Shown in pieces: positions 1,574 to 53,426 of a DNA stretch of 64,000 bases. Position 1 is the stretch's first letter. Each line of letters begins with the position of its first letter. The stretch covers positions 329,049 to 393,048 of the forward strand of contig JACKGO010000001.1 of assembly GCA_020631975.1 (NCBI GenBank), written 5' to 3'. The stretch is from Candidatus Nomurabacteria bacterium. GTDB taxonomy: Bacteria; Patescibacteriota; Saccharimonadia; Saccharimonadales; CAIOMD01. Under the pieces are notes generated by a model. It was not told the DNA's origin and did not search any database. It worked only from the letters and a program-made list of their open reading frames with translations. Position numbers and translations under genes: made by a program.

Positions 1574-2386
1574 CTACCGTGTAGTTGTATGGCTATTGAT
1601 TATATGTGAGCGCTTCTTAGTATTATTTGTGCGCTTTTGCTGAAACGGACGTTGTTTTATATCTTTAGATGCTACTGTTTGATTCTTAGCCTTAATGGTT
1701 GGTTGAGAAACCTTTTTCGCAAATAGCATTTTTCCTGCTACGGTTTGATGCGATTTATTTATCGTTACCTGTATTGATTTACCAATGTCTTTAATTGCCC
1801 CATCAACAACGACCATAGTACCGTCGTCTAGGTAGCCGACCCCTTGATCACGGTTGGTACCAGATTGCAAAATTGTCACATGCGCAGTTTCTCCCGGCAA
1901 CGCTACTGGTCGGACAGCGTGGGCGAGCTCATTAACATTAAGCACGGTGACACCTTCTATGGTTGCTACCTGATTGAGATTGTAATCGGTGGTAAATAAC
2001 TCAGCAGATGTCAATTTGGCAAGTGCTACAAGGTTTTCATCAGTTGTTACCTTGCCCGGTTGTGTTTCGTCTATTGTGACGTCTAGCTCAGCGTCATTTT
2101 GTAATTGCTGCACGACATTCAAGCCAAAGCGAGCGCGCTCACGTTTATAGCTATCACGGCCGTCAGCCAATAATTGTAGTTCTTTAACAATAAATTGTGG
2201 AACAATGATTTTTTTAGGCATAAACCCTATTTTGGCGAGCTCAATGACCCTTCCATCTATCAGCGCACAGCTGTCCAAAATAACACTACTTGCACCACCA
2301 GTAGGTTGCGTGATTTTTTTACGTGGTTTTTTATATACTAAAACTACTATTAATAAGAGAAGTCCAATAATTATTATATCTGTCAT
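1574..2386 (-). CDS. PIN/TRAM domain-containing protein (YacL-like), N-terminal TM helix
   Basis: ILDSCALIDGR...ELQLLADGRD is PIN-like and the C-terminal region is TRAM-like. It is adjacent to radA, as yacL is in Firmicutes. Confidence 0.7.
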   Translation of the reverse strand: MTDIIIIGLLLLIVVLVYKKPRKKITQPTGGASSVILDSCALIDGRVIELAKIGFMPKKIIVPQFIVKELQLLADGRDSYKRERARFGLNVVQQLQNDAELDVTIDETQPGKVTTDENLVALAKLTSAELFTTDYNLNQVATIEGVTVLNVNELAHAVRPVALPGETAHVTILQSGTNRDQGVGYLDDGTMVVVDGAIKDIGKSIQVTINKSHQTVAGKMLFAKKVSQPTIKAKNQTVASKDIKQRPFQQKRTNNTKKRSHIINSHTTTR

Positions 2387-2388
2387 GG

Positions 2389-3756
2389 TTAGCCTTTCAT
2401 CAGCGTGTCGTTAAGGATTGTTTTTATGTTTTTTGCTTCTTTATATTGTAGACCAGAATTTGTTTGCGACTTTTGTAATCGTGGACCAATAACACTTGTG
2501 AAACCCATTTTTTGGGCCTCTTGAATGCGTTTTTCTAGCCATGGTACATGTCGCACCTCTCCACTTAAACCTACTTCGCCAAACACCACAGCATCTGTAC
2601 TTAGTTGCATGCCTTTCGCTGCTGAAGCAATCGCCATGCATATAGCCAAATCGGCAGCGTTTTCAGTTATTTTTATGCCTCCAACTATATTGATATAAAT
2701 GTCTTTGTCAGAAAGCTTCAGCTTGGTTCGGCGCTCAAGCATTGCAACAAGCAAATTAAGTCGGTTTAGATCAAACCCAGATGCTGCACGCTTAGGATAG
2801 CCGTAGCTTGTTGTATTAACGAGTGCTTGTACTTCTACTAGTATTGGCCTTGTGCCTTCTAGGGTTGCGAGCACGATAGAACCGTCACTGATTTGTCGCT
2901 CTGAAAGTAATGCTGCTGATGGATTTGTAACGACATGCAGACCCTTATCGGACATCTCTAGAATGACTGCTTCGTTTGTAGAGCCGAACCTATTTTTTAT
3001 GCCTCTTAAGACGCGAAATCCTGCATATCGGTCACCCTCTAGCTGCAATACGACATCCACTAAGTGTTCAAGAACTTTTGGGCCTGCGATAGAACCTTCT
3101 TTTGTAACGTGCCCCACCAAGATAACCGCAGTATTGGACTGTTTAGCTGCCAGCGTAATCAGTTGAGCACTGTTCGTAACTTGGCTGACTGAGCCGGGCA
3201 CACCAGTGATTTCATCTGTTGCTAATGTTTGCACTGAATCGACAATAACCACATTGTATTCACCAGAAACAATCGTAGTAGCAATGTCGTTTGCGCTGTT
3301 ACTGGTTGCTATAACTACGTTTTTATCTATTGCACTGCTAATACGCTTGCCTCTCATGGCGACTTGTTCTGCTGACTCTTCACCACTTACGTATAGAAGC
3401 GAGCTAGTCTGTGCAATTGCATACGCAAGTTGTAGTAGTAACGTGCTCTTTCCTATACCAGGTTGTCCAGCTAGCAGTGTCACGCTACCATGTACTAAAC
3501 CACCACCTAACACCTTGTCTACATCAGCCACACCAACAGGTATTCTGTCTGAATGGCTGACTGCGGTCTGCTCATTGATAGTTGTTGCTTTAAGCACGCT
3601 TCCGCTATGGACTGCTTGTTGGCCTTTTGTGCTGCCACGAACGTCTAGCACTTGCTGGATAGTGTTCCAGGCGCCACACGTAGCACACTTACCACTCCAG
3701 GATCCGTATGCTTCTCCACAATCACTGCAAACATATTTTGTCTTAGCCTTTGGCAT
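2389..3756 (-). CDS. radA: DNA repair protein RadA/Sms
   Basis: N-terminal zinc ribbon CSDCGE...CATCGAWNT, Walker A GQPGIGKST, Lon-like C-terminal domain, 455 aa. Confidence 0.95.
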   Translation of the reverse strand: MPKAKTKYVCSDCGEAYGSWSGKCATCGAWNTIQQVLDVRGSTKGQQAVHSGSVLKATTINEQTAVSHSDRIPVGVADVDKVLGGGLVHGSVTLLAGQPGIGKSTLLLQLAYAIAQTSSLLYVSGEESAEQVAMRGKRISSAIDKNVVIATSNSANDIATTIVSGEYNVVIVDSVQTLATDEITGVPGSVSQVTNSAQLITLAAKQSNTAVILVGHVTKEGSIAGPKVLEHLVDVVLQLEGDRYAGFRVLRGIKNRFGSTNEAVILEMSDKGLHVVTNPSAALLSERQISDGSIVLATLEGTRPILVEVQALVNTTSYGYPKRAASGFDLNRLNLLVAMLERRTKLKLSDKDIYINIVGGIKITENAADLAICMAIASAAKGMQLSTDAVVFGEVGLSGEVRHVPWLEKRIQEAQKMGFTSVIGPRLQKSQTNSGLQYKEAKNIKTILNDTLMKG

Positions 3757-3775
3757 AACGATTAGTGTACCATTT

Positions 3776-4756
3776 TCATTCGTAGTATTGATATTTACTA
3801 TCGATACTATTTACCAGGTCTTGTTGCCTGTCTACTGTGCTATTGTACTCTTGAACCAGTTTATTATACTCTGCGATTAACTGTTTAAGACTGCTTATTT
3901 TTTGATTATATGCCTCAACTTGTTGATTGTAGCTAGGCACCAATGCGTTATATTCTGCGAATTTTTTTTGGGAACGGTATGCTTCTAGTTGGCGTTTTGT
4001 TTCTAGTAGCGCTGCTTCATCTTCACCTATTTGAGCTTCTTGCTGCGAGATTTCTGATTTACGTAAGGCTAAATCACCATTGATGCGCTGTGTGTCACTT
4101 TTTGCTGTATCAAACACAGCTTCGTAACTTTCTGAAAGTGCTACAACTTTCTGTCTATCAGAAAAATACGTACGATAATACTGCTCTAATTGTGGGTCTA
4201 GTGAGGCAACTTCTGTGCCTAAAATAGAATGCATCTCGTTTGGTACGACGGACGGGTCTTTATCTTGGTATCCTTTTATGAGCTGCAGTATTCTTGGATT
4301 GTTGATTTTCGTAACCATAGTCGCCGTCATTTCATCTACTTGTTGGCGCTGCTTGGGGCTTAGTCTGTCGTATGCAGCATGGAGCATTTCGTGCGAAGCA
4401 GTTACCTCTTTAATGCCTGCGAGCTCCGGTTTTTGCACATTATAAATGTATATATCGGTGTCTTTATTAAAATCAAATCCTGTATAGCACCCTAGTACAA
4501 TTGTTGCTTCGCTTGATGTACAAACGCTATTAAACTCAGCCTGCTCAGTTATTTTAGGCACATGTGAGTAAAATATCTCTGCGCCCGTTTCGTTCATGCC
4601 GCTATCTTTTGCTAATTGTACGATTTCTGGGCTAGGTGTGTAAGAACGGAGTACATACGCATCAAATATTGTAAACCGGTTAAACCACACAAACACAATA
4701 GACACTACCATAGCGATAAAAACTGTTGTCCATAGCCATTTAACTGTCCGTGTCAT
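3776..4756 (-). CDS. Hypothetical membrane-anchored protein with HEMLH (HExxH) motif and long C-terminal coiled coil
   Basis: 326-aa ORF with an N-terminal TM helix, the motif TASHEMLHAAY, and a Q/E/K-rich heptad-like C-terminus. I recognise no family. Confidence 0.6.
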   Translation of the reverse strand: MTRTVKWLWTTVFIAMVVSIVFVWFNRFTIFDAYVLRSYTPSPEIVQLAKDSGMNETGAEIFYSHVPKITEQAEFNSVCTSSEATIVLGCYTGFDFNKDTDIYIYNVQKPELAGIKEVTASHEMLHAAYDRLSPKQRQQVDEMTATMVTKINNPRILQLIKGYQDKDPSVVPNEMHSILGTEVASLDPQLEQYYRTYFSDRQKVVALSESYEAVFDTAKSDTQRINGDLALRKSEISQQEAQIGEDEAALLETKRQLEAYRSQKKFAEYNALVPSYNQQVEAYNQKISSLKQLIAEYNKLVQEYNSTVDRQQDLVNSIDSKYQYYE

Positions 4757-4777: not shown

Positions 4778-7249
4778 TTATTCGTGGATTACACTAAACG
4801 TAAGTAGTTTTTTATCTGTAGTAACAGTTATTACGTCACCTGCCGTAAAAGTTCCGTCTAATATATTATCCGCCACTGGATCTTCGATTTCATCTTGAAT
4901 GGCTCTGCGCATAGGGCGTACTCCGTTGTGTACATCGTAGCCTTTTTTTAGTAGCCAGTTTTTGGCAGCTGCGCTTAAGTGTATGCCAATTTTTTGGCGC
5001 TGCAAACGTTGGGCTAATTCATTAATTTGAACATCAATAATTTTACGCACAGCTTGTTTGTTGAGCGCTTTAAAGACGATTATTTTATCTATACGATTAA
5101 TAAGCTCTGGACGCATATGCTTTTTCAGTTCTTCTTTTACTTTTTCGCTATTTTCGGCATGGAGTTCATCGACAGATTTATCATTTGCCTTGCTGGCAAA
5201 GCCAAGGTTAACCTCTTTTTGCAACAACTTAGCACCAATATTACTCGTAAGCATGATAATCGTATTCCTAAAGCTCACCTTACGACCTTTTGCATCTGTG
5301 AGTTCGCCGTCTTCAAAAATCTGCAGAAGCATATTAAATACTTCAGGGTGCGCTTTTTCTATCTCATCAAATAACACAAGGCTATACGGTTGGCGACGAA
5401 TTTTATCAGTTAACTGACCACCTTCTTCGTACCCTACATAACCAGCTGGGGCGCCAACTAAACGTGCCACTGTGTGGCGCTCACCAAATTCACTCATATC
5501 AATTTTAATCAGTGCATCTTCTTTCCCAAAAAACTCTCGTGCCAGGACACGCGCAAGCTCAGTTTTCCCTACACCTGTTGGACCCATGCACATAAATGTA
5601 CCGATTGGTCTTTTTTCACTCCCTACACCAGAACGATTTCTTCGTATAGCCCGTGCAATAGCATTAATTGCCTCTTCTTGCCCAATTACATAGCGGCCGA
5701 GGTGTGATTCTAATTTTAGAAGATTTTTCGCCTCTTGACGCATGAGTTTTGTAAGCGGAATCGACGTTGCTTGATGTACTACCCTCGCAATGTCATCACC
5801 GCTAAGTTCTAGTCGCTTATGCTTGCCCAGCTTGCTTTTTAGTTCATCAAGACGTGCCTGTGCCGCACTAATACGTTGTTTATATTTTGCGGCTTTTTCG
5901 TAATCTTCTTGCTCTACTGCATCATCACGACGAACAGTAAATAAGCGTATTTCTTTTATAAGTTGACGATATTCTTTAGGTGTTTTGCCTTTATCTACGC
6001 GCAATAATGCGGCTGCTTCATCAAGCAAATCAATTGCCTTATCCGGCATATAGCGATCACTTATGTATCTATCGGCAAAATATACCGCGTCTTCTATCGT
6101 TGCATCAGAAATACGAACACCATGGTAATCTTCGTAGTGTTTTTTAAGCCCTTTTAAGATTGCGAGCGTTTCTGTGGTAGTGGTCGGTGGTATAACGACA
6201 GGTTGAAAACGTCGTTCGAGCGCAGCATCTTTTTCTATATGTTTATGATACTCGCTCGTCGTCGTGGCGCCGATGACTTGTATTTTGGCACGCGCAAGCG
6301 CAGGTTTAAGTATATTCCCTGCATCAATAGCTCCTTCTGCCGCCCCAGCGCCAACGAGAAGGTGCATCTCATCAATAAATATAATAATTTTTCTATCTGC
6401 CATTAGCTCGTCCATAACCTTTTTTAGGCGCTCTTCAAACTCACCACGGTATTTGGTACCGGCAATCATGGCAGCTAAGTCTAATACAACAATGCGTTTT
6501 TCTAGTAAGCTGTCAGGTACCTCTTCTGCAACAATTCTTTGAGCAAGGCCTTCTACGACGGCTGTTTTACCAACCCCAGGTTCTCCAATCAAAACAGGGT
6601 TATTTTTACTCCTGCGGTTTAATATCGTGATGGTACGTTTTATAGCGTCTTCTCTACCAACAACCGGATCTAGCTTATCTTCAGCTGCGAGAGCCGTCAG
6701 GTCACTCCCAAATACATCGAGAACACTTTTACCACCTTTGCGACGTGACTTAGTTGCCGTGCGTTTGCGAGATTGGTCTGAATCAAACTGCTGCTTCTGC
6801 AAAAAGTCATCAAAAGAATTCAACAATTTATCAGTATTGATATTCATATCTCTAAGCAGTACTGTCGCACGTGAATTTTTTTGTTGCAAAATACTAAACA
6901 CAATGTGCTCGGTCCCACACATGTCTTGGCCGTAATCTTGTGCGTAATCCCAGCTCACCTTGAGTGCTAATTTAGCGGTTTCGCTGAGACCTTTCGCACC
7001 AAGATTAATGACGAGATTTTTAGGAGTTAGGTTAAGGGCTAGCTGGGCTCTCTCATAGGAAACGCCTGCTGTGGTGAGTATTTTAGAAGCTACTGAATTG
7101 TCTTGAGCCAATACTCCCAGAAGTATGTGTTCAGTGCCGACATATGCCGAACCTTGCGTACGTGCAACATGATCAGCATGTTTTAGGCTCATAAGGGCAT
7201 TATCAGTCAGGTGGTTCAGAAATTCTTGCATATCTTGTGACTCATTCAT
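4778..7249 (-). CDS. clpC: ATP-dependent Clp protease ATP-binding subunit ClpC
   Basis: 823 aa with two Clp_N repeats, two AAA+ modules (GEPGVGKT, GPTGVGKT), a short UVR-like linker (EQEDYEKAAKYKQR) and an LGF loop. Confidence 0.92.
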   Translation of the reverse strand: MNESQDMQEFLNHLTDNALMSLKHADHVARTQGSAYVGTEHILLGVLAQDNSVASKILTTAGVSYERAQLALNLTPKNLVINLGAKGLSETAKLALKVSWDYAQDYGQDMCGTEHIVFSILQQKNSRATVLLRDMNINTDKLLNSFDDFLQKQQFDSDQSRKRTATKSRRKGGKSVLDVFGSDLTALAAEDKLDPVVGREDAIKRTITILNRRSKNNPVLIGEPGVGKTAVVEGLAQRIVAEEVPDSLLEKRIVVLDLAAMIAGTKYRGEFEERLKKVMDELMADRKIIIFIDEMHLLVGAGAAEGAIDAGNILKPALARAKIQVIGATTTSEYHKHIEKDAALERRFQPVVIPPTTTTETLAILKGLKKHYEDYHGVRISDATIEDAVYFADRYISDRYMPDKAIDLLDEAAALLRVDKGKTPKEYRQLIKEIRLFTVRRDDAVEQEDYEKAAKYKQRISAAQARLDELKSKLGKHKRLELSGDDIARVVHQATSIPLTKLMRQEAKNLLKLESHLGRYVIGQEEAINAIARAIRRNRSGVGSEKRPIGTFMCMGPTGVGKTELARVLAREFFGKEDALIKIDMSEFGERHTVARLVGAPAGYVGYEEGGQLTDKIRRQPYSLVLFDEIEKAHPEVFNMLLQIFEDGELTDAKGRKVSFRNTIIMLTSNIGAKLLQKEVNLGFASKANDKSVDELHAENSEKVKEELKKHMRPELINRIDKIIVFKALNKQAVRKIIDVQINELAQRLQRQKIGIHLSAAAKNWLLKKGYDVHNGVRPMRRAIQDEIEDPVADNILDGTFTAGDVITVTTDKKLLTFSVIHE

Positions 7250-16692: not shown

Positions 16693-19600
16693 TTAATGTA
16701 ATTTTACAGCGTCGTCGCCAACTACGTTGGCCAAGGCTTCATGGAACCCTTCACTGTACTTAATTTTCTGAGAAAGACGTATAGGACGTTTTTTATCACC
16801 CACCACCAGAACGGTTTCTGTATTACCCAGGTGTTGTTCTAGAATCACTTTGATATCTCGCAGCACATCGTCTGTATGATGAGTTTGCAAACGAATGTAA
16901 AGACGTTTTGTCTTGGGGAGGGGTGTATCTATTGGTGGACGTGACTGGGTTTTTTTAGGTTTACCAAGCGACGTTTTTACACCAGTCGGCTGATATGCTT
17001 TAGCCTCGTCCAAACTAAGTAACATAAATGTATCTGCAATTAATTTTGGCTCAGCCATAGCATTGCCTGCTTTGTCTTTACTGTTCACTCGCCCTTTAAC
17101 AAGTACAACTTTATCTTTCACTATACTTGCACTATTTGCTTCTAGTACTCGCGGAAACACAACAACTTCTATTTGATCGCCAACAATATCTTCTACTTGT
17201 ACAAAAGCCATCGCTTGTCCATTTTTGGTAGTTATTTGACGAAGATCACTAATACTGCCTCCAATAGTTGCCGTCTTACCATCATCATCTATCCGTATCG
17301 TGGCGAGTGGCACCGCTTTTTCGGTCAATATTACGTCGTATGATTCAAGCGGGTGACTAGATAAATATAGCCCAAGAAGTTCACGTTCCCATTGCAAATA
17401 TTCATGGGTCTGATACAGCCCAGTTGATACAATTTCTACCTCTGGCTTTACTTTTGCTATCTCACCAGCGCCAAACAGATCAACCTGCCCATCAAGCGCT
17501 TCTTTACTCAATTTTGATGATACCGCTACAATTGAGTCTATACTTTCTAGCAGCGCACTTCGATCACCAAACCGATCTAGTGCACCACTTTTTATGAGAC
17601 TTTCTAGCACTTTTTTATTAATTTGACGGGCATTAGTGTGTTCGAGAAAATCCGCTAATTCATTAAACTGACCGTGAGTTTCTCTTGCAACAATTATATT
17701 TTCTACTGCATTGTGCCCGACGTTTTTTATGGCATCCATGCCAAAGCGTATAGAAGGTGCTTCATCTTGCTTGTGAGGTACTACCGAAAACTCATGAAAC
17801 GATTCGTTAACATCTGGAGGCAAGACGGTAATACCCATATGTTTACATTCGGTAATTTCAATTGCCAATCGATCTATATCATCGTAATCGCTGGTCATGA
17901 GTGCCGCCATGAAAGCTGCTGGGTAGTGTGCTTTTAAATAAGCCGTCCAGTATGCAATTAGTGCGTAGCATGCGGAGTGAGATTTATTGAAAGCATAATC
18001 AGCAAATCCCATTAAATCATCCCAGAACTTTTCCATTACATCTTTGGGTACGCCGCTATGTTCAACACCACCATCTATAAACTTTTGCTGCATCTTGAGC
18101 ATAACTTCGCGTATTTTTTTGCCAATCGCTTTTCGTAACGTATCAGCTTCACCGCCACTAAAGCCACAGACTTCTTTACTAATCTGCATGACCTGCTCTT
18201 GATAAACAAGTGTGCCGTAGGTAGATGACAAAGCGTTTTCGAACTTTTTATGTGGCACGCTGACTGCTTCTTTACCGTTTTTTCGCCGGACAAACATATC
18301 TACGAGGCCTGCTTTTAAAGGTCCTGGGCGATACAAGGCGCACATGGCAATAATATCGTTAAATTCTGTGGGCTTCAGCTCTTTTAAGTATCGTTTCATA
18401 CCAGCCGATTCTAGCTGGAACACGCCGGTGGTGTCTCCTTTGCCTAGTAACTCATATGTTTTTTTGTCGTCTAACGGTAAGGTATTTATATCTATTGTTA
18501 CTCCGTAGACTTTTCTAATGATTCTTAGAGCATTTTTAATAGTCGTTAAATTAGAAAGCCCCAAAAAATCCATTTTTAGTAGGCCAAGCTCTTCAATAAT
18601 ACCCATTGGATATTGTGTAGATACAACCCCTTTCTGAGCCATTTCTAGTGGTACATAGGACACAATATCGTTTGGTGCAATCACTACACCGGCAGCGTGC
18701 ACGCCGTGGCTTCTAATGGTGCCTTCTAGGCGCACCGCCATGTCGTACACTTCTTTTGCCTGTGGGTTAGAAGTGTATTCTTTTTTTAAGTCGTTGTTTT
18801 CTTTGATTGAAGTAGCCAGTGGCAAGTGACGGCCTTGTTGTGGTGGAGGCACTAGTTTTGCCATACGGTCGGCGTCGGCATAGGGTACTTGTAAAACACG
18901 TGCTACGTCGCGGACAGCTGCCCTCGCTGCCATGCGTCCATATGTCACGATATTTGCTACTCTGTCATCACCATATTTAGCAACGCAATATTCAATTACT
19001 TCTCCGCGGCGATTATCTTGAATGTCAATATCTATATCTGGCATACTAATGCGATCAGGGTTTAAGAATCGCTCAAATAGCAAATCGTTTTTAATAGGAT
19101 CCAGATCTGTGATATGCAAGGCGTATGCAATAATTGAGCCAGCTGCCGAACCTCTGCCAGGTCCAAACATAATGCCTTGTTTTTTGCCCCAGGCGACAAA
19201 ATCCCAAATTATTAAGAAATAGCCATTAAATCCCATGGAATCAATAACATCTAGCTCATATTCGGCTCGCGAAATTACCTCTTTCGGCAGTTGATTTTTA
19301 GCTTCTTTATGGGAAGGCTTTTTGGGTGCGTATCTCTCGGCGAGACCTTTATAAACAAGCTCATGTAAATATGATTTTTCAGTGTACTTTTTTGGCACTG
19401 GGAACTGAGGAATAAGAATATTACCTAGTTCAATTTCTATATCGCAGCGTTCAGCGACTGCTTTTGTATTGGTAATAACCTCTGGATAGTCTTTCCCCCA
19501 CCTCTGAATTATTTCTGATGGTTTTTCTACGTGTAAAGGAAAATCTTTAAGTGACATCCTTTTCTCTTCGCTCACGTATGAACCTGTACCAACGCAGAGC

Positions 19601-23830: not shown

Positions 23831-25254
23831 AGTAATTTCTCCGTTGCCTGGGCAATTCCGAGCAGTTGCCGATCGTGCAGTTGTGGTGCCATAAACTGAA
23901 TACCAATTGGTAATTTATTCACCTCTCCAGCCGGGATACTAATCGCCGGAATACCAACAAGGTTGGCTGCCACAGTCATAATGTCTGCTAAATACATCTG
24001 CAATGGGTCACCTACATTTTGGCCAAGCTTAAAAGCGGTAAAAGGTGCTGTTGGGCCAACCAAAAAATCTACAGATGTAAATACTTCTGCAAATTCATTA
24101 ATGAGTTTGGTGCGAACAGTTTGAGCACGTTTGTAATATGCATCGTAGTAGCCACTTGAAAGCACGTAGGTACCAATCATTATTCGCCGCTTATTTTCTG
24201 CTTCAAAACCACGCTCTCTGGCAATTTCATATGATTCTTCTAAATCCTGTGCGTCTGATGCAGCTAAACCATAGCGCTGGCCATCATAACGGCTCAAATT
24301 ACTACTCACTTCTGCCGGAACAATAATGTAATAACACGCTAGAGCAAGATCAATAGAAGGTAGTGATACCTGTTTGATCTCTGCACCAGCAGATTCTAGT
24401 TTTTTTATAGTAGCGAGTGTCGCATTTTTAATATCCGAATCTATACCGTCAGCATAAAATTCTTTAATTACACCGATCTTTTTACCCTTGAGTGAACTGT
24501 CTAGCTTAGTGTAACTTGTGGTGTCTCGCTGTATTGTTGTACCATCAAGCGGGTCACGTCCGCTCATGACGTCGAGTACCAGTGCTGCATCCTCGCTTGT
24601 TCTTGTAAGAGGACCAATGACGTCAGTAGAACTTGCCATTGCTACCACACCAAATCTAGACACCAACCCATAGGTAGGTTTTAAACCAACAATTCCACAA
24701 AAACTAGCTGGCAGACGTATAGAGCCACCTGTATCTGTACCTAGTGCAAAGGGGGCAATGTTGAGCGCAACCGCAGCACCAGAACCACCGCTAGACCCAC
24801 CGGGCACCCGGCTCGTGTCTATAGGGTTTTTGGTTGGACCAAACGCGCTGTTTTCTGTGCTAGAACCATGCGCAAATGCATCAAGGTTAGCTTTGGCAAT
24901 AACTATTGCGCCTGCGGCTTCTAGCTTTTGTATCGCTGTAGCCTGAAACGGTGCTTCAAACGGTTCTAGTATGTGGCTCGCTGCAGTCGTTGGTGTACCA
25001 AGCGTTAAAAAATTATCTTTTGCCACAAACGGTATACCCGCAAGATCGCCAACAGATTTACCTGCTTTTATGTCTGCATCTATTTGGCTGGCACGCTTCA
25101 ACGCCCGTTCTTCTGGTATAGATAAAATAGCATTGTAGTCTTTAGTAGCCTTGGCTCTTTTAATAGCCTCTGTAACAAGGCTAACAGCAGACGTTTTGCC
25201 AGACTGTACAGAAGCAACCAATTCACGTATCGGCAACCACTGATCAAACATCAT
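23827..25254 (-). CDS. gatA: Glu-tRNA(Gln) amidotransferase subunit A
   Basis: Amidase signature GGSSGGSGAAVA; 475 aa. Confidence 0.95.
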   Translation of the reverse strand: MMFDQWLPIRELVASVQSGKTSAVSLVTEAIKRAKATKDYNAILSIPEERALKRASQIDADIKAGKSVGDLAGIPFVAKDNFLTLGTPTTAASHILEPFEAPFQATAIQKLEAAGAIVIAKANLDAFAHGSSTENSAFGPTKNPIDTSRVPGGSSGGSGAAVALNIAPFALGTDTGGSIRLPASFCGIVGLKPTYGLVSRFGVVAMASSTDVIGPLTRTSEDAALVLDVMSGRDPLDGTTIQRDTTSYTKLDSSLKGKKIGVIKEFYADGIDSDIKNATLATIKKLESAGAEIKQVSLPSIDLALACYYIIVPAEVSSNLSRYDGQRYGLAASDAQDLEESYEIARERGFEAENKRRIMIGTYVLSSGYYDAYYKRAQTVRTKLINEFAEVFTSVDFLVGPTAPFTAFKLGQNVGDPLQMYLADIMTVAANLVGIPAISIPAGEVNKLPIGIQFMAPQLHDRQLLGIAQATEKLL

Positions 25255-43677: not shown

Positions 43678-46464
43678 TTAGCCAAACAGTAGCCCAGCTG
43701 CAACCATACAAGCTACAAGAACACCCACGATAAGCAAACCTTTTTTCCGGCTAATTCTGGTACGGGTAAATTCAGCGCCAAGATAATAATAAGGGAACAC
43801 TGTAATAACCAGGAACGTGCTTGATAACAAGCCAAAAATAATCAACACTGCAAGTCCTTGCCAAAATGGGCTAAGAATAGCAAGTGGTGTGATTGCAACG
43901 ACCGCCGTAAGACTTGTCGCAATTAGTGGGCGAAAACGTTCTTGCAGGGCTTCGCTAATGGCATCTACCGCACCCTTGCCTGCCTTGCGAGCTTGGTTTG
44001 CATAGTCTGTTAGCAAAATAGTGTTTTTAATACTAAGCCCAATAAGCGCAAAGAAACCGAGCATCGCAAAGAAGCTGAATGGGTTATCTGTAAGATACAG
44101 GCTCAAGCTTATACCAAAGAAGCTGAATGGGAGTGCAAAAAAGATAAGCAGTGGCTGTAGTAGTGAGCGGAATTGCACCGCTAGTAAAATATAAATTGCA
44201 AGTAAAACAAACGGGAAGGCAATGCCTAGCGCCGCAAAACTATCTTGATTTTCTGCTTCTTGACCGAGGTCGTACTGCAACGCTTCATTGTTTAAACCAT
44301 ACGATGCTACTTTTTCAGGTGGGAATGCTTCATTTACAGCAGCCTCTGTAAGATTAAATAGTCGCGTTGTGTCGCTGCCGTCAAATTCGGCGCTAACAGG
44401 TACACGTAATGTACTATCTGCTCGGGTAAACGAACTAGGGTTGGGTGGCGAGACATTTGTTACACTTGCAGTCGTTCCATCTGGGCGCGTAACAGTGAGT
44501 GTTTCAAAAAAGGTAGCTACGTCTTGCGCCAGGGCAAGTGAAGCTTCACGGTTATCGTCCACGATAACAACTGTAAACGCCTGAGCTGGTGGGCCAGCAT
44601 CTACTTGTGCAGCCTTAGACTGGACCGTGGGTAATTGCTCGTCGAGGGCTGATTGCACTTGGCTCACGAGCTCTGGTGAACGGACATCTCTCTTAGAATA
44701 TGAGATCAGTTTTATAGAAAGCGTAGCGCTACGTTCATCGCCACTATTGTAAAGTGAGCCATATTCTAGGTTTTCGTCTAGGGTTGTATTAATGATTTGC
44801 GTTGCTTTATTGGTGTAGTCTTCTGCAGCCGTAAGGTCGGTGCCTGGTGCAAACGATAGAGTCACCTGCATATCATTAGCGTCTTTTGAAGCAGGAAAGA
44901 TATTAAACGCTACTTTTGTTGCAAAATAGCCCCCTGCTGCAATAAAGCCAAACCCAATAACAACCGCAGTGAGTCCAACTAACGTTAACCGTTTGAGTGA
45001 GTTTTTTGCCCACTGCATTGGTCTAGCTATAAACTCAGCCAGTTTATGCTCGAACCCTGCTGCAACCTCTTTAATGCCGTCTTCACCCATTGACTTTTTG
45101 TTTAAGAGCACGAATTTCGCTAGATACGGTATAAATATTAAAGATACTAACAGGCTAATAAGCAGTGCCGCAATAACTGTCGCCGGTATTGCCCGTATAA
45201 ATGTCCCTAGTATTCCACCAACGAATAACAGTGGCATAAAGCTTAACACTGCTACAAAAGTTGCGCTTAACATTGCACGGCTAATTTTACGCGTAGCCTC
45301 AGCGACTGCTTTTCTGGCACTCTTTTGCCGCCTACGCTGAGCGTCGATGGCTTCAATCATGATAATAGTGTCGTCAACAATGAGCGCTAAACTTAAGATA
45401 AGTGCAAATAGTGTTATGACATTGAGGGTGTAGCCAAGCACGTATAACAGTCCTATCACTCCAAAGATAATCACAATGAGGGCAATAACCGTTATAAAGG
45501 ATGCCCGTAATGCAATCACAAGTGCTCCCACAACCAACACGGCTACAAGTGCAATCAGTAGTTCACGCTGAAGTTCAGAAATATTATCTCTGATATCGGG
45601 TGCAAAACTGGCACTCACAACAGCACTTGTTGACGTGTCAGATTGATTGGCAACTATCTCACCTACAGCCGCATTTACTTCGTCATCAAATTGAAGCAAA
45701 TCGGCTGAATCTGTTTTAGTGACACCTACGAGTACCGATGGATACAGTGTACTTTGGTTTGCTTCTCTTTGGCTATATGCATCAAACGTCCTTTGAATGA
45801 TTTGCGATTGCCCTGTAAACGGATTGGTTGCTTGCTGGAAAGGATCTATGACGTAAGCTTTCTTAACTGTTGATAAGTTTTTTTGATTAAGTTCATCTGC
45901 AAATAGTTGGGCAGATGCAACCAACTGCTCTGTTGTTTGGTTAGCCTTACCATACACAGAAATACCAATATCCACAGGCTCTAGTTGTCTGCCGGCAGGG
46001 CTAATATACGGTGCACTTACCGTTACTTGCGCTTGCTCAGGAATTATATTCTCTGTCTTTAGTGTAGACTCTAGCTGTGCTGCGGCTTCTTGAGCATTCA
46101 CTGACTCTTCATACCGTACAAATACGTTAAAGAAGTTATCAAAGGCTTGTGATTGGACGGTTGCCACGCCTTGCTGTTTCATAGCAGCGTCAGAAATCGG
46201 TTTTGCAACAGAAGTGTCTACTTTTTCGGCATCACCAATGTAAGTACCATTAATGCTGGCGACCGGAAAATCAATACTTGGAAAGCCTTCACGTTTTAGA
46301 AGGGTAGTGTAACTTAGTACGCCAAAGGCGAAAATAAACAACAACAATGCCGCAGTAAATCGTGGCCTATCAAAAAAGAATAGGCTAAATTTTGGCAATA
46401 ATTTAGCATCATTTTTAGTAAAGGTCGTTTGCTTGACCTTTTTTGTCGTAGTTTTTTTTGCCAT
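43678..46464 (-). CDS. RND-superfamily efflux permease (AcrB-like), 928 aa
   Basis: 12-TM architecture with two large loops and an AcrB-like N-terminus (FFFDRPRFTAALLL). SD AAGGGGGAG. No adaptor or outer-membrane partner gene is adjacent. Confidence 0.8.
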   Translation of the reverse strand: MAKKTTTKKVKQTTFTKNDAKLLPKFSLFFFDRPRFTAALLLFIFAFGVLSYTTLLKREGFPSIDFPVASINGTYIGDAEKVDTSVAKPISDAAMKQQGVATVQSQAFDNFFNVFVRYEESVNAQEAAAQLESTLKTENIIPEQAQVTVSAPYISPAGRQLEPVDIGISVYGKANQTTEQLVASAQLFADELNQKNLSTVKKAYVIDPFQQATNPFTGQSQIIQRTFDAYSQREANQSTLYPSVLVGVTKTDSADLLQFDDEVNAAVGEIVANQSDTSTSAVVSASFAPDIRDNISELQRELLIALVAVLVVGALVIALRASFITVIALIVIIFGVIGLLYVLGYTLNVITLFALILSLALIVDDTIIMIEAIDAQRRRQKSARKAVAEATRKISRAMLSATFVAVLSFMPLLFVGGILGTFIRAIPATVIAALLISLLVSLIFIPYLAKFVLLNKKSMGEDGIKEVAAGFEHKLAEFIARPMQWAKNSLKRLTLVGLTAVVIGFGFIAAGGYFATKVAFNIFPASKDANDMQVTLSFAPGTDLTAAEDYTNKATQIINTTLDENLEYGSLYNSGDERSATLSIKLISYSKRDVRSPELVSQVQSALDEQLPTVQSKAAQVDAGPPAQAFTVVIVDDNREASLALAQDVATFFETLTVTRPDGTTASVTNVSPPNPSSFTRADSTLRVPVSAEFDGSDTTRLFNLTEAAVNEAFPPEKVASYGLNNEALQYDLGQEAENQDSFAALGIAFPFVLLAIYILLAVQFRSLLQPLLIFFALPFSFFGISLSLYLTDNPFSFFAMLGFFALIGLSIKNTILLTDYANQARKAGKGAVDAISEALQERFRPLIATSLTAVVAITPLAILSPFWQGLAVLIIFGLLSSTFLVITVFPYYYLGAEFTRTRISRKKGLLIVGVLVACMVAAGLLFG

Positions 46465-50093: not shown

Positions 50094-50125
50094 TGCAGTG
50101 TTTCTTATATTGTTTACACTGCAAT
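50092..50125 (-). promoter_or_regulatory. 10-bp perfect hairpin sequestering the ABC-exporter start codon
   Basis: The minus-strand RNA reads ATTGCAGTGT-(14 nt)-ACACTGCAAT, and the final AT are the first two bases of the ATG (50093..50091). An upstream ACACTG copy could pair with the 5' arm instead. Confidence 0.5.
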
Positions 50126-50278
50126 AATAGCACAGTGTAGCTAAGTGTAGCGTTGCCGCAGAGCACAAACAATTTAGTTTATGATCTATGGGAACGCAGG
50201 TGTTGTTGCATCCTGTCTTGACACATCGGGCATATACTTCATGCCTCTGAAGGTCAGTTCCCCCGGTTTTCTTTCCGG

Positions 50279-50410
50279 CTAGTGCTCGAGCGGGCAGATG
50301 TCGGGATCATGCCCGGTCGTTCCGCATCTTAAGCAGTTCAGCTTAATGCCTCCCATGCCCCGCTTCTTGCCCCCATTGCAATTGGGACAACAGCCTTTGC
50401 AGCTCGCCAT
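50279..50410 (-). CDS. Unannotated 43-aa Cys/His-rich micro-protein (MASCKGCCPNCNGGKKRGMGGIKLNCLRCGTTGHDPDICPLEH), zinc-knuckle-like
   Basis: ATG at 50410 and TAG at 50281..50279. GGAGGAGGTGA (50427..50417) ends 6 nt upstream of the ATG. The spacings CX2CCX2C and CX2CX4HX4C are both present. The ORF is below the ORF-track length cutoff. Confidence 0.5.
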   Translation of the reverse strand: MASCKGCCPNCNGGKKRGMGGIKLNCLRCGTTGHDPDICPLEH

Positions 50411-50613
50411 GTTACTTCACCTCCTCCAAGGTATAGTAGGTACGATAAGTAAGGGCTCGGTCGGGGGGTACGGGGGATGTGACCCCCGACCGAGCCTCTC
50501 TTGATAGCCTTTTCGGGCAGTCAAGAGGGAGGTGGTACGGAGGATCCTCGCTTGTGCGGGGCTTTTGCACGCGCTTTAGGCGTCCACTCCGTCCCCACTT
50601 GGTACAATAAACG
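50411..50613 (-). ncRNA. GC-rich, hairpin-dense segment between the tRNA-Pro 3' end and the micro-ORF (candidate cis-regulatory leader or small structured RNA; class unknown)
   Basis: Three consecutive stems are visible: 50537-42/50587-92, 50498-504/50521-27, and a perfect 14-bp stem 50454-67/50483-96. An anti-SD-like CACCTCC sits at 50534..50528. GC is about 50-65% by hand count. Confidence 0.4.
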
Positions 50614-50686
50614 TCGGGGTGGCAGGAATTGAACCTACGCTCCCGGCGCCCAACGCCAGAGCTCTACCAAACTGAGCTACACCCCG
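50614..50686 (-). tRNA. tRNA-Pro (anticodon UGG), CCA not encoded
   Basis: Hand-folded cloverleaf. Acceptor CGGGGTG/CACCCCG; D arm GCTC-AGTTTGGTA-GAGC; anticodon stem CTGGC/GCCGG with loop GTTGGGC (U33, UGG, G37); T arm GTAGG-TTCAATT-CCTGC; discriminator A. Confidence 0.92.
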
Positions 50687-50689
50687 TGT

Positions 50690-50770
50690 GATAGTGCCTA
50701 CGTTGGTGTGGTAGGCTATCTTTTTTACCGACTACGACAACAGCGCAATCAGCACAAAAGATAGTCTACC
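50690..50770 (-). promoter_or_regulatory. Three-arm alternative-pairing element immediately upstream of the tRNA-Pro 5' end
   Basis: In the minus-strand RNA, arm1 is GGTAGACTATCTTTT (50770..50756), arm2 is AAAAGATAGCCTACC (50724..50710) and arm3 is GTAGGCACTATC (50701..50690). Arm2 can pair with arm1 (14/15) or with arm3. Confidence 0.4.
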
Positions 50771-50871
50771 AAAAACCAGACCGATTCATACTTATTTTAG
50801 TTGCAACAACACCTGTTAATGTACTTGCCTATCATGGGCTAAATTTACAGCCTCACGGGCACAGCTATACC

Positions 50872-50900
50872 ATATTACAACGTTTCTACAATTTGGTCAA
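50872..50900 (-). promoter_or_regulatory. Strong sigma-70-type promoter downstream of pheT (-35 TTGACC, 17 nt, -10 TAATAT), ~180 nt upstream of tRNA-Pro
   Basis: On the minus strand TTGACC is at 50900..50895 and TAATAT at 50877..50872. Confidence 0.55.
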
Positions 50901-50915
50901 GCCTTATTACGCTTG

Positions 50916-53426
50916 CTATATACGTTTCGCGTTATACGCCTTGGCGACTTCTGACGTCGCTTTTTCTACTAAGCTAGTAAGTTCTTGGGTAGTCATAGTG
51001 CGCTCATGATTGCTCATACTAAGCCGGAACGTGTAGTTAATGTGACTATCTGTTTTATAACTATCTATGGCAATAAGTGAATAAATTGATTTTTCTGGAA
51101 TATGCTGGGCAATTGCTTTCTGAAGCGAAGTAGAAATCGTGGCAAAGAGCATACTACTATCTACCTGTAGGGTAATATCTTGGTTTATAGAGGGGTATTT
51201 TGGTAGCTGCACATACCGTTTAGGAGTGCCTAGCGAGTGTTGTAAAAGAGGCACAATATTCAGTTCAAAACCTGCACAATAGCTTGGGAGTTTAAGCTTT
51301 TTCATTGTTTTGGCTTGTAATTCACCTACTACACCCAATGTTTCGCCGTCATCAGTCGCAATGACTGCACTACGCGTTGCTAGGAAAGGTTGCGACATAT
51401 CATTAGCTGGCTGGTTTGGCACGTCTGTAAAAGGAGTAAATGTAGCTTTAATGCCGAGTTTTTGTAACACACCATTAAGATACTCTTTTGCATAGTAATA
51501 TGGTTCGCCTTCGTAGTTTTTACGTTTCTTTTCGTCAGCCGCAAATACAAAAGCGAGGTTTTCATGTTCTATTGGTAAACCATCTTCTGCCACATACTGC
51601 TTAGAATGGGCTTTACCTATTTCAAATAAAGCAAATTCACCATAACCAGCTTTTATGTTTAGGTGAACCTTTTCTAGCACACTTGGTAAAACGCTCAGGC
51701 GATAGTACTGCAAGCGGGGGCTTAGGGCATTACTTAGTTTGTACGCATTACTTATGTCTTGATTAGACGCTTCTATGAGATCGCTATGCACAAACGTATA
51801 GGTAAGAAGTTCATTTGCACCCATGGCTGCCAAGGTGTGCCGTAGAGTTTCTTTAAAGTGTATTGAAGTATTCTTTTTGGCAGGTTTAGCAATGCGGGTT
51901 GGCAAGGCAATAGGTAACTTTTCATAACCATAGAGCCTGCCGACTTCTTCTACAATGTCTTCTTGTAAACGAATATCCCGGCGCCAAAATGGTACATGTA
52001 TGGTAATTGCATCGCTATGAACATCTACCTTACATTCTACGTTCTCTAATAATTGTGCGATTTGCTGGGCGCTTAGTTGTGAGCCTAAGCGAGTGTTTAT
52101 AAACTCTGCAGTAGTGCTGACGGGAGCCAATGGCACTACGGTGTCATCTTTATAGTCAACTACCGAACTAGCCAGTTGACCCCCTGCAATGCTTTGGACC
52201 ATTTCTGTTGCTTTGTGTAATACTCGCAGATTTTGCAAAGGGCTTTGCCCTTTGTTAAAGCGTGTTACGGCGTCTGTGAATAAACCATATTTCATGGCTG
52301 TACGCCGTATGTTGTACATATCAAAATTAGCACATTCAAGAACGATGTTTTTGGTCGTTTTGTCTACTTCTGTTTCGCTCCCACCCATAACACCACCTAT
52401 ACCAATTGGTGTATCATCAGCGCAGATAATTACCGTAGCATCATCTTGCATCATCACATCTTTACCGTTTAATAGTGCAATTGATTCTCCCTTTTTAGAT
52501 AGGCGCGCTCTAATGACGGCTTTTTTGGTGCCACTCTTTGCAATCAGTTTATCGTAATCGTATGCGTGTAAGGGCTGCCCCGTTAAGTGCATCAACCAAT
52601 TAGTAATGTCTACAATATTATTAATTGGTCGCAAGCCCACCCTACTTAGATCGGACTGCATCTGCAAGGGGCTAGCAGCCACCTGCACGTTTTTTAAGAC
52701 TATCGCACTAAAGCGTGGCACCAGTGGTGTGTCTACTGCAACTTGTAGTGGTAGATCTGTAATATTATTGAAAGTAGGATCCTGGCTATACCACTGTGGG
52801 CTTATAAAAGCTTTCTGCTGAATACCGGCAAGTTCACGCGCAACACCAAGCACACCAAAACAATCAGGTCGGTGTGTAAACATTTTATTTTCGCAATCTA
52901 CAACATCATCATCTAAGTTATATAAGCTTACAAAAGGGGTACCAGCTGGGACGTCTTCTGTAATTACTAATATACCGTCATGATCGTCACTTAGCGCAAG
53001 CTCAGCAGGACTGGCGATCATACCATTGCTACGTAGACCACGTAGTTCACGTGCACCAAGTACAAATGGTTCTTTGTCGTCGGCGGTGCTCGGTACAATT
53101 ACCCCTGGGGGTAGCCACACGACGGTTTGGCCAGTGGCTATGTTTGGGGCTCCACACACGACCTGTATACGTCCGTCTTGGTCACGCTCGATATCTTTTA
53201 TGCTATTGCCGTCATCCACCAAGCAAACACTTAGCTTATCGGCGTTGGGGTGTTTAACGCAGCTCACCACCTTAACAACTACTACACCTTGGTATTTTTT
53301 ACCCCACTCTATAACGTCTTCTACTGCACCAAGTTGTGCACCTATTTTTTTAACGACTTCATCTGTTCCAATGCTGGTGATGTCTACGTTGCTGACTGAT
53401 TGCGCCCATTTTAAACTAACATTCAT
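50916..53426 (-). CDS. pheT: Phenylalanine--tRNA ligase beta subunit
   Basis: 836 aa with an N-terminal tRNA-binding OB domain and B3/4, B5 and FDX-ACB-like regions. 1-nt gap after pheS. Confidence 0.93.
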   Translation of the reverse strand: MNVSLKWAQSVSNVDITSIGTDEVVKKIGAQLGAVEDVIEWGKKYQGVVVVKVVSCVKHPNADKLSVCLVDDGNSIKDIERDQDGRIQVVCGAPNIATGQTVVWLPPGVIVPSTADDKEPFVLGARELRGLRSNGMIASPAELALSDDHDGILVITEDVPAGTPFVSLYNLDDDVVDCENKMFTHRPDCFGVLGVARELAGIQQKAFISPQWYSQDPTFNNITDLPLQVAVDTPLVPRFSAIVLKNVQVAASPLQMQSDLSRVGLRPINNIVDITNWLMHLTGQPLHAYDYDKLIAKSGTKKAVIRARLSKKGESIALLNGKDVMMQDDATVIICADDTPIGIGGVMGGSETEVDKTTKNIVLECANFDMYNIRRTAMKYGLFTDAVTRFNKGQSPLQNLRVLHKATEMVQSIAGGQLASSVVDYKDDTVVPLAPVSTTAEFINTRLGSQLSAQQIAQLLENVECKVDVHSDAITIHVPFWRRDIRLQEDIVEEVGRLYGYEKLPIALPTRIAKPAKKNTSIHFKETLRHTLAAMGANELLTYTFVHSDLIEASNQDISNAYKLSNALSPRLQYYRLSVLPSVLEKVHLNIKAGYGEFALFEIGKAHSKQYVAEDGLPIEHENLAFVFAADEKKRKNYEGEPYYYAKEYLNGVLQKLGIKATFTPFTDVPNQPANDMSQPFLATRSAVIATDDGETLGVVGELQAKTMKKLKLPSYCAGFELNIVPLLQHSLGTPKRYVQLPKYPSINQDITLQVDSSMLFATISTSLQKAIAQHIPEKSIYSLIAIDSYKTDSHINYTFRLSMSNHERTMTTQELTSLVEKATSEVAKAYNAKRI

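Follow-up and report, generated by a model that had tools for sequence, protein, structure and literature searches.

The 64,000-nucleotide (nt) stretch of contig JACKGO010000001.1 (Candidatus Nomurabacteria bacterium, order Saccharimonadales) analysed here, referred to below as the window, carries on its minus strand the genes pheS and pheT (ending at 50916), a promoter, a tRNA-Pro-shaped element, a group of GC-rich hairpins, a micro-open reading frame (micro-ORF) and three transporter genes, in that order. The transporters are two ABC exporters of the fused permease/ATPase type, ABC1 (50093-48309) and ABC2 (48267-46498), and an RND-family transporter (46464-43678). An earlier reading of this DNA from its letters (the original prediction) had singled out the hairpin-dense segment of about 200 nt between the tRNA and the micro-ORF (50411-50613) as a discrete element and probable functional RNA of the minus strand. 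A conserved structured RNA on that strand, with G-U changes in its helices, is supported by the comparison with relatives described below, but a free-standing element is not: the segment is the variable middle of a module of approximately 0.65-1.3 kb, to which the tRNA-shaped element and the micro-ORF also belong. The unit that matters in the window is this module, of about 720 nt (approximately 50865-50151), rather than the 200-nt segment.

Anatomy and conservation of the module

Contigs of the same species, including those from anaerobic-digester samples (L001-L009), were 100% identical to the window across the whole 816-nt intergenic region and gave no covariation information. In the nearest GTDB species, Saccharibacteria with 47-57% identical PheT, pheT is followed by a variable stretch, ABC2 and the RND gene; the tRNA, ABC1 and the module are all absent, and these genomes were usable only as a negative outgroup. 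Orthologues of ABC1 form a compact set with 58-69% identity, and the contigs of this set were compared. Every locus with an ABC1 orthologue has 0.5-1.3 kb of seemingly empty DNA upstream of the transporters, with 50-65% GC in genomes of 36-42% GC, and common to all of them are ACAGGTGTTGT near the start and its complement ACAACACCTG 0.5-1.2 kb downstream. Conservation of the region in relatives, on which the original prediction depended, was thus found in the form of a GC-rich, hairpin-dense island at the equivalent place. A metagenome scan with the 5' motif returned 22 matches, 16 of them by chance, and added two distinct new modules, one directly before an ABC2 orthologue (L032) and one directly before an MMPL transporter (L036). 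The comparison accordingly covers 12 distinct modules, namely that of the window and those of the loci L019, L021, L023, L024, L026, L027, L028, L032, L036, L051 and L053, and in 10 of the 12 a transporter gene (ABC1, ABC2 or MMPL) directly follows the module. A further candidate, L041, was rejected as a coding repeat on the other strand, and in a marine-sediment contig (L039) a 20-nt pattern matched by chance in unrelated sequence.

All 12 modules share one plan, consisting of a 5' domain, a long-range helix, a variable centre, a 3' domain and a terminal hairpin. The window module, whose features are all given for the minus strand, is headed by a sigma-70-type promoter identified by consensus scan (TTGACC-17-TAATAT, 50872-50900), with a probable transcription start near 50866-50864; in 11 of the 12 modules, a promoter of the type TTGAC[AC]-17-TAnnAT precedes the 5' strand of the long-range helix by 72-85 nt. 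In the 5' domain, hairpin P1 (50826-50861), seen in the alignment and in single-sequence folds, has UGCC..GGCA closing an inner GGCU/AGCC stem and is directly followed by the conserved single-stranded motif GYACWUUWAC (50825-50817); in L036 the closing stem of P1 is replaced by UUUUUGGG/CCCAAAAA. The long-range helix joins a 5' strand at 50802-50816 (ACAGGUGUUGUUGCA) to a 3' strand at 50197-50210 (UGCAACAACACCUG) by 12-16 bp (50816-50802 with 50210-50197), and only two copies of its motif, inverted, occur in the window. The variable centre enclosed by this helix comprises an AT-rich hairpin, the tRNA-shaped element, several GC hairpins and, usually, a micro-ORF led by a Shine-Dalgarno (SD) sequence. 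The AT-rich hairpin of the window (50705-50782, from the minimum free energy, MFE, fold) stands between the 5' strand and the tRNA-shaped element, and every module has an equivalent one of different sequence. The 3' domain (50211-50278) contains a hairpin CCGG-aaagaaaa-CCGG (50278-50263), the G-run CGGGGGA (50265-50259), a second hairpin GGCAU..AUGCC (50245-50229) and a linker, with CGGGGGA..GACC and GGCA..UGCCC common to the window, L024, L027, L023 and L051. The terminal hairpin (50151-50196; CGUUCCCAUAGAUCAUAAAC ... GUUUGUGCUCUGCGGCAACG) ends 57 nt before the start of ABC1 at 50093. It is not followed by a U-tract in the window or in most relatives; U5-U7 follows it in L028 and L032. In L053, its loop carries a GC-rich insertion of about 150 nt.

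When the 12 full modules (648-1338 nt) were folded as single sequences, every MFE structure contained the long-range helix, with 12-15 pairs. Covariation was assessed by counting the 24 pairs of the long-range helix and the terminal hairpin in an alignment composed of the 5' and 3' portions. Standard pairs occupied 96.2% of the cells and 10 of the 24 pairs had changed on both sides, values reached by none of 500 column shuffles; when the 3' partners were slid by 1-3 columns, pairing fell to 35-51%. The long-range helix alone (12 pairs) was 96.5% paired, its variable positions showing U:A, C:G and U.G in one pair and G:C, C:G, U:A, A:U and G.U in the next, and in the terminal hairpin 8 of 12 pairs had changed on both sides, with many conserved U-G wobbles. 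About 26 G-U cells among the 24 pairs would be A-C mismatches if read on the other strand, and because of these wobbles in homologous helices the RNA is read on the minus strand of the window. The module centres were also more stable than their shuffles, with z between -4 and -20 (rough values, from 16 shuffles per sequence). As far as comparative sequence evidence goes, what is shown at this locus is a conserved, promoter-headed, highly structured minus-strand RNA domain that is closed by a long-range helix and encloses a tRNA shape, hairpins with C-rich loops and a micro-ORF.

Between 49900 and 51200, no terminator-like site was detected on the minus strand. The hairpin H3 described below is followed by CUUACUUAUCG, with no U-tract after its stem, and an assignment of H3 and its neighbours as an intrinsic terminator or the trailer of the tRNA gene was rejected on these grounds. 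Besides 50900-50872, no promoter-like site was found on the minus strand between pheT and ABC1, nor between the 3' strand and the transporter gene in most relatives. Since a conserved promoter lies upstream and no promoter or terminator lies between, the module and the transporter genes are probably co-transcribed.

Hairpins, tRNA shape and micro-ORF of the module centre

The hairpin segment lies within the sole extended GC-rich island of the window (approximately 50212-50731), which also spans the tRNA-shaped element, the micro-ORF and about 70 nt past the micro-ORF and which peaks at 64.7% GC over 150 nt, against a window mean of 41.8% (standard deviation 5.0). The other 150-nt intervals that reach 56% GC are just 24698-24887, 53028-53226, 18815-18965 and 44526-44677; all four are weaker than this island, and at least two are inside long ORFs (pheT and the RND gene).

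The three stems drawn by hand in the original prediction, the C5 run in the loop of the third and a CACCTCC element were all found on the minus strand where it had placed them. H1 pairs ACGGAG (50592-50587) with CTCCGT (50542-50537) around an inner GTGC/GCAC hairpin and is extendable to 50598-50532; the outer stem is then GUGGGGACGGAG / CUCCGUACCAC, with inner hairpins, and contains the CACCUCC proposed as an anti-SD (50534-50528). H2 pairs CUCUUGA (50527-50521) with UCAAGAG (50504-50498), with an inner GCC/GGC stem, at a pair probability of 0.97-0.99. H3 is a perfect 14-bp GC stem (50496-50483 with 50467-50454) with the apical loop UCACAUCCCCCGUAC, in which the C5 run occupies 50476-50472, and by itself reaches -33.9 kcal/mol. 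The 202-nt RNA of the segment had an MFE of -87.3 kcal/mol, compared with -61.25 +/- 4.61 kcal/mol for 200 dinucleotide shuffles, none of which was as stable (z = -5.65). The plus strand was nearly as stable (z = -5.49), and fold energy therefore cannot give the strand of this segment. A protein-coding reading of the hairpin segment was discarded, since it holds only short ORFs without homologues and its sequence is not conserved in relatives.

When the 202 nt were compared with all modules by sensitive BLAST, similarity began only at position 112 and covered H3, the spacer and the SD, whereas H1 and H2 had no detectable homologue in any relative. H1 and H2 belong to the lineage-specific filling of the module. 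The covariation by which the original prediction proposed to judge its stems was obtained for H3, which is the conserved hairpin of the family, GCUCGGYCG...CGRCCGAGC, found in L024 (two copies), L027, L021, L026, L032 and L051. Its homologues carry compensatory and G-U changes: in the 12 pairs of the outer stem, 86.5% of the cells were paired, with L051 out of register, and 8 of the 12 pairs had changed on both sides (for instance, in one pair, U:A three times, U.G three times and C:G twice), a result reached by none of 500 shuffles, with slid controls only 27-44% paired. By this comparative evidence, H3 is functional. The hypervariable sequence of the hairpin segment argues against a ligand-binding pocket there. 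In L032, a single 5' arm of H3 has two alternative partners, since the 3' arm is present twice in succession (CGGCCGAGAC then CCGGCCGAGCAC).

C-rich apical loops recur beyond H3. The 12 module centres contain 22 runs of the form C5-7G, 17 of them within predicted apical loops, whereas dinucleotide shuffles contain 4.6 +/- 2.1 (at most 12 in any of 300); the reverse complement was found 6 times against 3.7 expected, and the enrichment is hence strand-specific. L019 and L028 have no C5G runs. It had also been proposed that the loop C5 could pair with the G5 end of the 5' stem arm and give mutually exclusive folds. Such an alternative is possible in the window and in L024, where a small CGGGGG/CCCCCG hairpin can be formed (-12.5 kcal/mol in the window, against -33.9 for the full H3 stem), but it is impossible in L027 and is not a conserved feature of the family; conservation concerns the C-run apical loop itself. 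Pairing of the H3-loop C5G with the CGGGGGA downstream of the micro-ORF was likewise rejected as a general feature, the G-run being present in just 5 of the 12 modules.

The tRNA-Pro(UGG)-shaped element (50613-50686) was detected by both ARAGORN and Rfam and has canonical acceptor, D and T arms, with C1:G72 and A73. It scored 57.8 bits on the Rfam tRNA model (RF00005), for which the gathering score is 29. Its anticodon loop reads G32-U-UGG-G-C38, and in the MFE fold it shuts to a 3-nt loop via G32:C38; G32 is rare in real tRNAs. Orthologous elements in relatives scored 42-58 bits on the same model. Acceptor, D and T arms of the Pro-like type are retained in them; the anticodon regions consist of 3-6-nt loops, unassignable anticodons or insertions of 25-35 nt, and ARAGORN either failed on them or returned two- or four-letter "anticodons". 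The loop has 4-6 nt in L024 and 5-6 nt in L051, the arm is broken in L027 and replaced in L023, and the element of L019 combines a 3-nt anticodon loop with a 35-nt insertion in the D arm. Retention of the acceptor, D and T arms together with loss of canonical anticodon loops is what would be expected of a shape kept for processing and not for decoding; the acceptor and T arms kept, the degenerate anticodon arm and the location inside a longer probable transcript are the marks of tRNA-like processing elements. Judging from these orthologous elements, selection seems to keep the tRNA shape rather than decoding. The position of the element varies, and in L021, L026, L032 and L051 it stands just 3' of H3 instead of 5'. 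L024 carries two tandem tRNA-shaped elements (4139-4216 and 4251-4324), one called as "tRNA-Phe(aaa)" and the other with a 6-nt anticodon loop.

The translation initiation region of the micro-ORF (50411-50453) consists of a pyrimidine-rich spacer (CUUACUUAUCGUACCUACUAU), a mini-hairpin and a 10-nt SD (50427-50418; GGAGGAGGTG in DNA, GGAGGAGGUG in RNA). The CACCTCC at 50534-50528 had been suggested to act as an anti-SD for this site. In a partition function calculated for an RNA that begins at the tRNA end and extends 30 nt into the micro-ORF, each CACCUCC:SD pair had a probability of about 0.08, with CACCUCC chiefly paired inside the extended H1, and a conserved distal counterpart was not found in relatives; distal masking, limited to about 8% of the modelled ensemble, is not supported. 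The 3' half of the SD instead pairs at about 0.7 with the adjacent ACCUU (50432-50428, the pairing reaching 50433), in a predicted mini-hairpin ACCUU-GGAG-GAGGU (50432-50419). Similar mini-hairpins were predicted in most relatives (ACCUC/GAGGU in L024 and in L027, CACCU/AGGUG in L028, CCCU/AGGG in L051 and GCUCU/AGGAGC in L023), and from this recurrence and the modelled pairing the adjacent ACCUU would be the local anti-SD. The spacer (CUUCGUU..CUACnAUACCU) and the SD are conserved even before differing ORFs. Upstream of the 37 window ORFs of at least 200 codons, with starts taken approximately as the first ATG, GGAGG was not found at all and GGAG or GAGG was found in 4; by these counts, the 10-nt SD of the micro-ORF appears as a clear exception in this genome. 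Many ORF starts of the window have a TATAAT/TATACT-like box 8-20 nt upstream, suggesting leaderless or short-leader mRNAs.

The micro-ORF (50279-50410) has 43 codons and encodes MASCKGCCPNCNGGKKRGMGGIKLNCLRCGTTGHDPDICPLEH, a small protein with a CxxCCxxC motif followed by a putative knuckle with CX2CX4HX4C spacing at residues 26-39. Homologues read from the DNA of L019, L028, L023 and L027 had a proportion of nonsynonymous differences (pN) of 0.15-0.45, against saturated synonymous values (pS) of 0.63-0.87, which points to purifying selection on a protein and marks the micro-ORF as a gene. The homologue of L019 is MGKCRGCCQACNGGKKTGFAGIKLTCSRCRTTGHDPRVCPDKR, L028 has a similar protein with a TTG start, and those of L023 and L027 are of the type WTNxxxCNGCCTxCxG...CDRCxGSKHDP. 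The window protein had no Pfam match at E<=0.1 and none in NCBIfam; its C-terminal half weakly matched the nucleocapsid knuckle of HIV-2 (phmmer, E 0.048), and the micro-protein matched multi-knuckle proteins in a library of 1.84 billion proteins (best E 6e-21, 26 stretches). A word-index search detected no homologues in protein databases; they were found only in the DNA of related loci, the micro-ORF was never annotated by gene callers in public assemblies and the exact protein is not recorded as a called gene. In other modules, an SD of this kind is followed by small zinc ribbons unrelated to the window protein. The micro-proteins of L021, L032 and L036 carry two CxxCxGxG motifs, with sub-threshold hits to the DnaJ central domain and Anti-TRAP, and those of L026 and L051 are ribbons of other types. 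L024 keeps the SD and the first three codons of the window (ATGGCGAGC) and then diverges completely into a non-Cys ORF of 50 codons, and the L053 module has no micro-ORF. In the window, the stop codon abuts the CCGG..CCGG hairpin, and about 70 nt separate the end of the ORF from the long-range 3' strand. Two contigs otherwise identical to the window (L008 and L009, from ENA ERZ27264001 and JGI 3300009775) stop at the same base, approximately 50353, inside the micro-ORF, which could reflect a strain-level graph branch or an assembly artefact at the GC hairpins.

Possible functions of the module

These features are most readily combined in a reading to which we give a probability of about 0.4, in which the module is a processed, structured leader and the hairpin segment is the structured 5' untranslated part of the micro-ORF gene within it. 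The module would then serve as the 5' leader of the exporter operon and as a processing cassette. The transcript would start at the promoter just after pheT (50900-50872) and run on into ABC1-ABC2-RND, and the tRNA-shaped element would act as a processing signal, with predicted excision by RNase P and RNase Z. In the window, H1-H3 would then come to lie at the 5' end of the micro-ORF mRNA, as would the GC hairpins of L024 and L027, where they could hinder 5'-end-dependent decay and prevent the spacer and the SD from pairing elsewhere. H3, with its C-rich loop, would probably dock a protein or a G-rich RNA, and the SD would be partly masked by the adjacent ACCUU and not by the distal CACCUCC. 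The long-range helix would join the 5' and 3' domains in a junction that could decide between processing and read-through into the transporters. In this scheme we infer that the genes are co-transcribed and the RNA is cleaved, and we likewise infer the roles in stabilisation and docking and any regulation of the transporters.

Several observations weigh against this reading. The long-range helix, with its 12-16 bp, is short for a classical RNase III site (about 20 bp or more); of the properties of an RNase III-type stem, the complementary flanks and the covariation were found and the length of two helical turns was not. The hairpins cannot serve the micro-ORF alone, because L053 lacks the ORF and L024 has an unrelated one in its place, and a specific role for H1 and H2 is unsupported because they are not conserved. 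The order of the tRNA-shaped element and H3 varies between modules, and in L021, L026, L032 and L051 H3 lies upstream of the tRNA-like cut and thus not at an mRNA 5' end. The module is not always a direct leader, since a convergent gene of 606 aa stands between it and ABC1 in L027 and another ORF intervenes in L023. The window element itself could be a working tRNA-Pro gene.

A further tentative reading, which we consider rather unlikely, is that the modules represent a new class of closed-domain, dual-function RNA of 0.65-1.3 kb, specific to one lineage of Saccharibacteria, in which a tRNA mimic, an array of hairpins with poly-C apical loops and the gene of a micro-protein (a nucleocapsid-like zinc knuckle or another zinc ribbon) are united. 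The RNA would form a ribonucleoprotein (RNP) with this micro-protein, autoregulating and gating the adjacent ABC, RND and MMPL exporters. Within the RNP, the knuckle may recognise the G-rich loop at the SD (GGAG in the window), or the C-rich loops may serve for docking.

Likewise rather unlikely is a large "ornate" or dual-function RNA that acts independently as an RNP scaffold or regulator in trans and merely neighbours the transporter operon. Its C-loop hairpins, H3 included, would be the active parts, pairing with SD-like G-rich targets or binding a protein, possibly its own micro-protein, and the role of the long-range helix and the terminal hairpin would be to delimit and protect the RNA ends. 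The extreme stability of the folds (z down to -20), the strand-specific enrichment and apical location of the C5-7G runs and the resemblance of the C-terminal half of the micro-protein to retroviral nucleocapsid knuckles are consistent with such an RNA, as is the L027 module, which is parted from ABC1 by the convergent gene with all its features kept, and the U5-U7 after the terminal hairpin of L028 and L032 would fit a 3' end. The transporter linkage in nearly all loci, with no separate transporter promoter, speaks against such an RNA, and a terminal U-tract is missing from the window and most relatives. No conserved G-rich partner was found for the C-rich loops, CGGGGGA occurring in a subset of modules only, and L019 and L028 do without C5G runs.

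We consider it quite unlikely that the module is a sensing leader of the efflux operon, whether riboswitch-like or responsive to a metal or protein, with the 5'/3' core as sensor and the hairpin segment as a passive expansion loop. Its place upstream of ABC, RND or MMPL exporters in 10 of the 12 loci, the location of the conserved single-stranded GYACWUUWAC, of UUCCCAUAG and of the conserved helices in the 5' and 3' domains, and the hint at metals given by the zinc-binding micro-ORFs would agree with this view. It fits poorly with the lack of an expression platform, there being no terminator in the window and no SD to mask at the transporter start, and with the absence of an Rfam match, and the segment is too variable for a binding pocket; moreover, we know of no sensors of 0.65-1.3 kb that include a tRNA mimic and an ORF.

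Very unlikely, in our estimate, is a ribosome-dependent attenuator in which translation of, or stalling on, the Cys-rich micro-ORF would reshape the RNA structure downstream and set read-through into the transporters, in the manner of the leader peptides of antibiotic-inducible exporters, with H1-H3 only tuning initiation. A short ORF with a very strong SD upstream of exporters, a stop codon abutting the CCGG..CCGG hairpin and the conserved SD-masking mini-hairpin would be compatible with attenuation. The peptide, however, is conserved as a protein (pN well below pS) and yet swapped or lost between modules, unlike stalling leader peptides; the ORF ends some 70 nt short of the long-range 3' strand, there is no terminator/antiterminator pair, and L053 has no ORF at all.

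Least probable is a functionless remnant (foreign GC-rich DNA, a decayed mobile element beside a tRNA gene or a tRNA 3' trailer), which the variation of the pheT-transporter junction among Saccharibacteria, the lineage-specific H1 and H2 and the transposase and integrase genes near the module in L019 and L028 might suggest, and which is largely refuted by conservation and covariation: the module is kept, with compensatory and G-U changes, across species whose ABC1 is just 58-69% identical, its promoter is conserved, its micro-ORF is under purifying selection, the window has no second copy of it and no repeat of the tRNA 3' end, and no matches were found in phage, plasmid or viral collections.

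Relation to known systems

That the segment matches no known RNA family, as had been noted from its letters, was confirmed by scanning with Rfam 15. At the gathering threshold, only tRNA was found in the whole window and in the 11 related loci; at E<=10, the region 50100-51000 gave the tRNA and spurious microRNA-precursor hits, on H3 and the AT hairpin, far below threshold. No covariance-model match was obtained to riboswitches, leaders, small RNAs, RNase P, tmRNA (also not found by ARAGORN), 6S RNA or GOLLD, ROOL, OLE, HEARO and raiA, and no description of the module was found in the literature searched. An origin from phage, plasmid or virus was rejected, the GC island having no meaningful matches in the respective collections; two module motifs of 20-23 nt that occur in viral contigs were chance matches in coding sequence only. 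An integration scar was dismissed for lack of a direct repeat of the tRNA 3' end in the window, and a dispersed repeat (of the REP, MITE or GC-cluster kind) for lack of a second copy of the hairpins or flanks in the 64 kb, each locus having one module.

The pieces of the module resemble known kinds, including 5' stabiliser and SD-masking hairpins, whereas their combination, size and taxon are new. tRNA-like processing signals in longer transcripts are known from the t-elements of plant mitochondria, the tRNA punctuation of mitochondrial transcripts and the mascRNA of MALAT1. Like t-elements and mascRNA, the tRNA shape of the module lies beside an mRNA part, inside what would be a long transcript; its acceptor and T arms are intact and its anticodon arm is free to degenerate. 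Unlike them, it is bacterial, its cleavage is only predicted, its position relative to the hairpins varies and the copy in the window retains the score of a full tRNA-Pro(UGG). Should this mimic indeed be a processing signal, it would be a bacterial equivalent of the tRNA punctuation of organelles. In rRNA operons, long-range helices of the leader and spacers are processing stems cut by RNase III. The module shares with these a promoter-proximal 5' strand that pairs 0.5-1.2 kb away and encloses structured RNA and a tRNA shape, but its helix has just 12-16 bp and encloses no rRNA but a sequence with a translated ORF, and cutting is again only a prediction.

C-rich loops are found in RNAIII of Staphylococcus aureus, which has UCCC loops, and in RsaE/RoxS, whose C-rich regions pair with SD sequences. 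One to four module hairpins have C-run apical loops, enriched and strand-specific, in a similar way; there is no sequence or covariance-model similarity to these RNAs, however, in the loops a G follows the C5-7 run, a conserved target was not found, and the module RNA is five to ten times larger, stands before an operon and encodes a protein. The anti-TRAP operon of Bacillus subtilis (rtpA-ycbK) has a long, tRNA-related and structured leader, a 53-aa zinc-binding DnaJ-like protein and a putative efflux gene. Its order of structured leader, tiny zinc protein and exporter is that of the module, and the micro-proteins of L036 and L021 give hits to Anti-TRAP (PF15777) and the DnaJ CXXCXGXG domain (PF00684), but these hits are below the Pfam cut-offs, the window protein is of a different, putative CCHC-knuckle type with no Pfam hit, and the module leader contains a tRNA mimic instead of binding a tRNA, with no T-box detected by Rfam. 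With GOLLD, ROOL, OLE, HEARO and raiA, the module has in common its large size, high GC relative to the genome, strong structure, association with tRNA and lack of a known function; it differs in matching none of their covariance models, in its conserved translated micro-ORF and in its occurrence, so far, in one clade of Saccharibacteria.

To our knowledge, almost nothing is known on regulatory or structured RNAs in Saccharibacteria and other bacteria of the candidate phyla radiation, whose small genomes are not expected to spare 0.7-1.3 kb of non-coding sequence. The locus provides a well-delimited candidate RNA, supported by covariation, with testable parts, namely the long-range helix, the tRNA mimic, the recurring hairpin with a poly-C loop and a zinc micro-protein gene missed by every gene caller. 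Its position before exporters may matter for drug, metal or host interaction in epibiotic Saccharibacteria, and if the RNA and the micro-protein do form an RNP, they would represent a new kind of dual-function RNA.

The surroundings of the module are themselves variable. The pheT-ABC2 junction is a hot-spot in Saccharibacteria, ranging from 49 nt to 3.8 kb and containing unrelated genes (L010-L018). Genes for integrases and rve-family transposases are situated, in L019, upstream of the module (1978-3922) and, in L028, between ABC2 and RND (4799-5755). ABC1, a clade-specific paralogue whose membrane domain is divergent (Pfam ABC_membrane just E 2e-4), was found only alongside the module, but the module also occurs without it, in L032 and L036. 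At 39% identity, the ABC1 homologue of L052 is the most distant one; it has no module and is preceded (2550-3001) by a canonical tRNA with a terminator and then by rpmG, which encodes the zinc-ribbon ribosomal protein L33. This succession of tRNA, small zinc-ribbon protein and ABC gene is that of the window and may be a coincidence.

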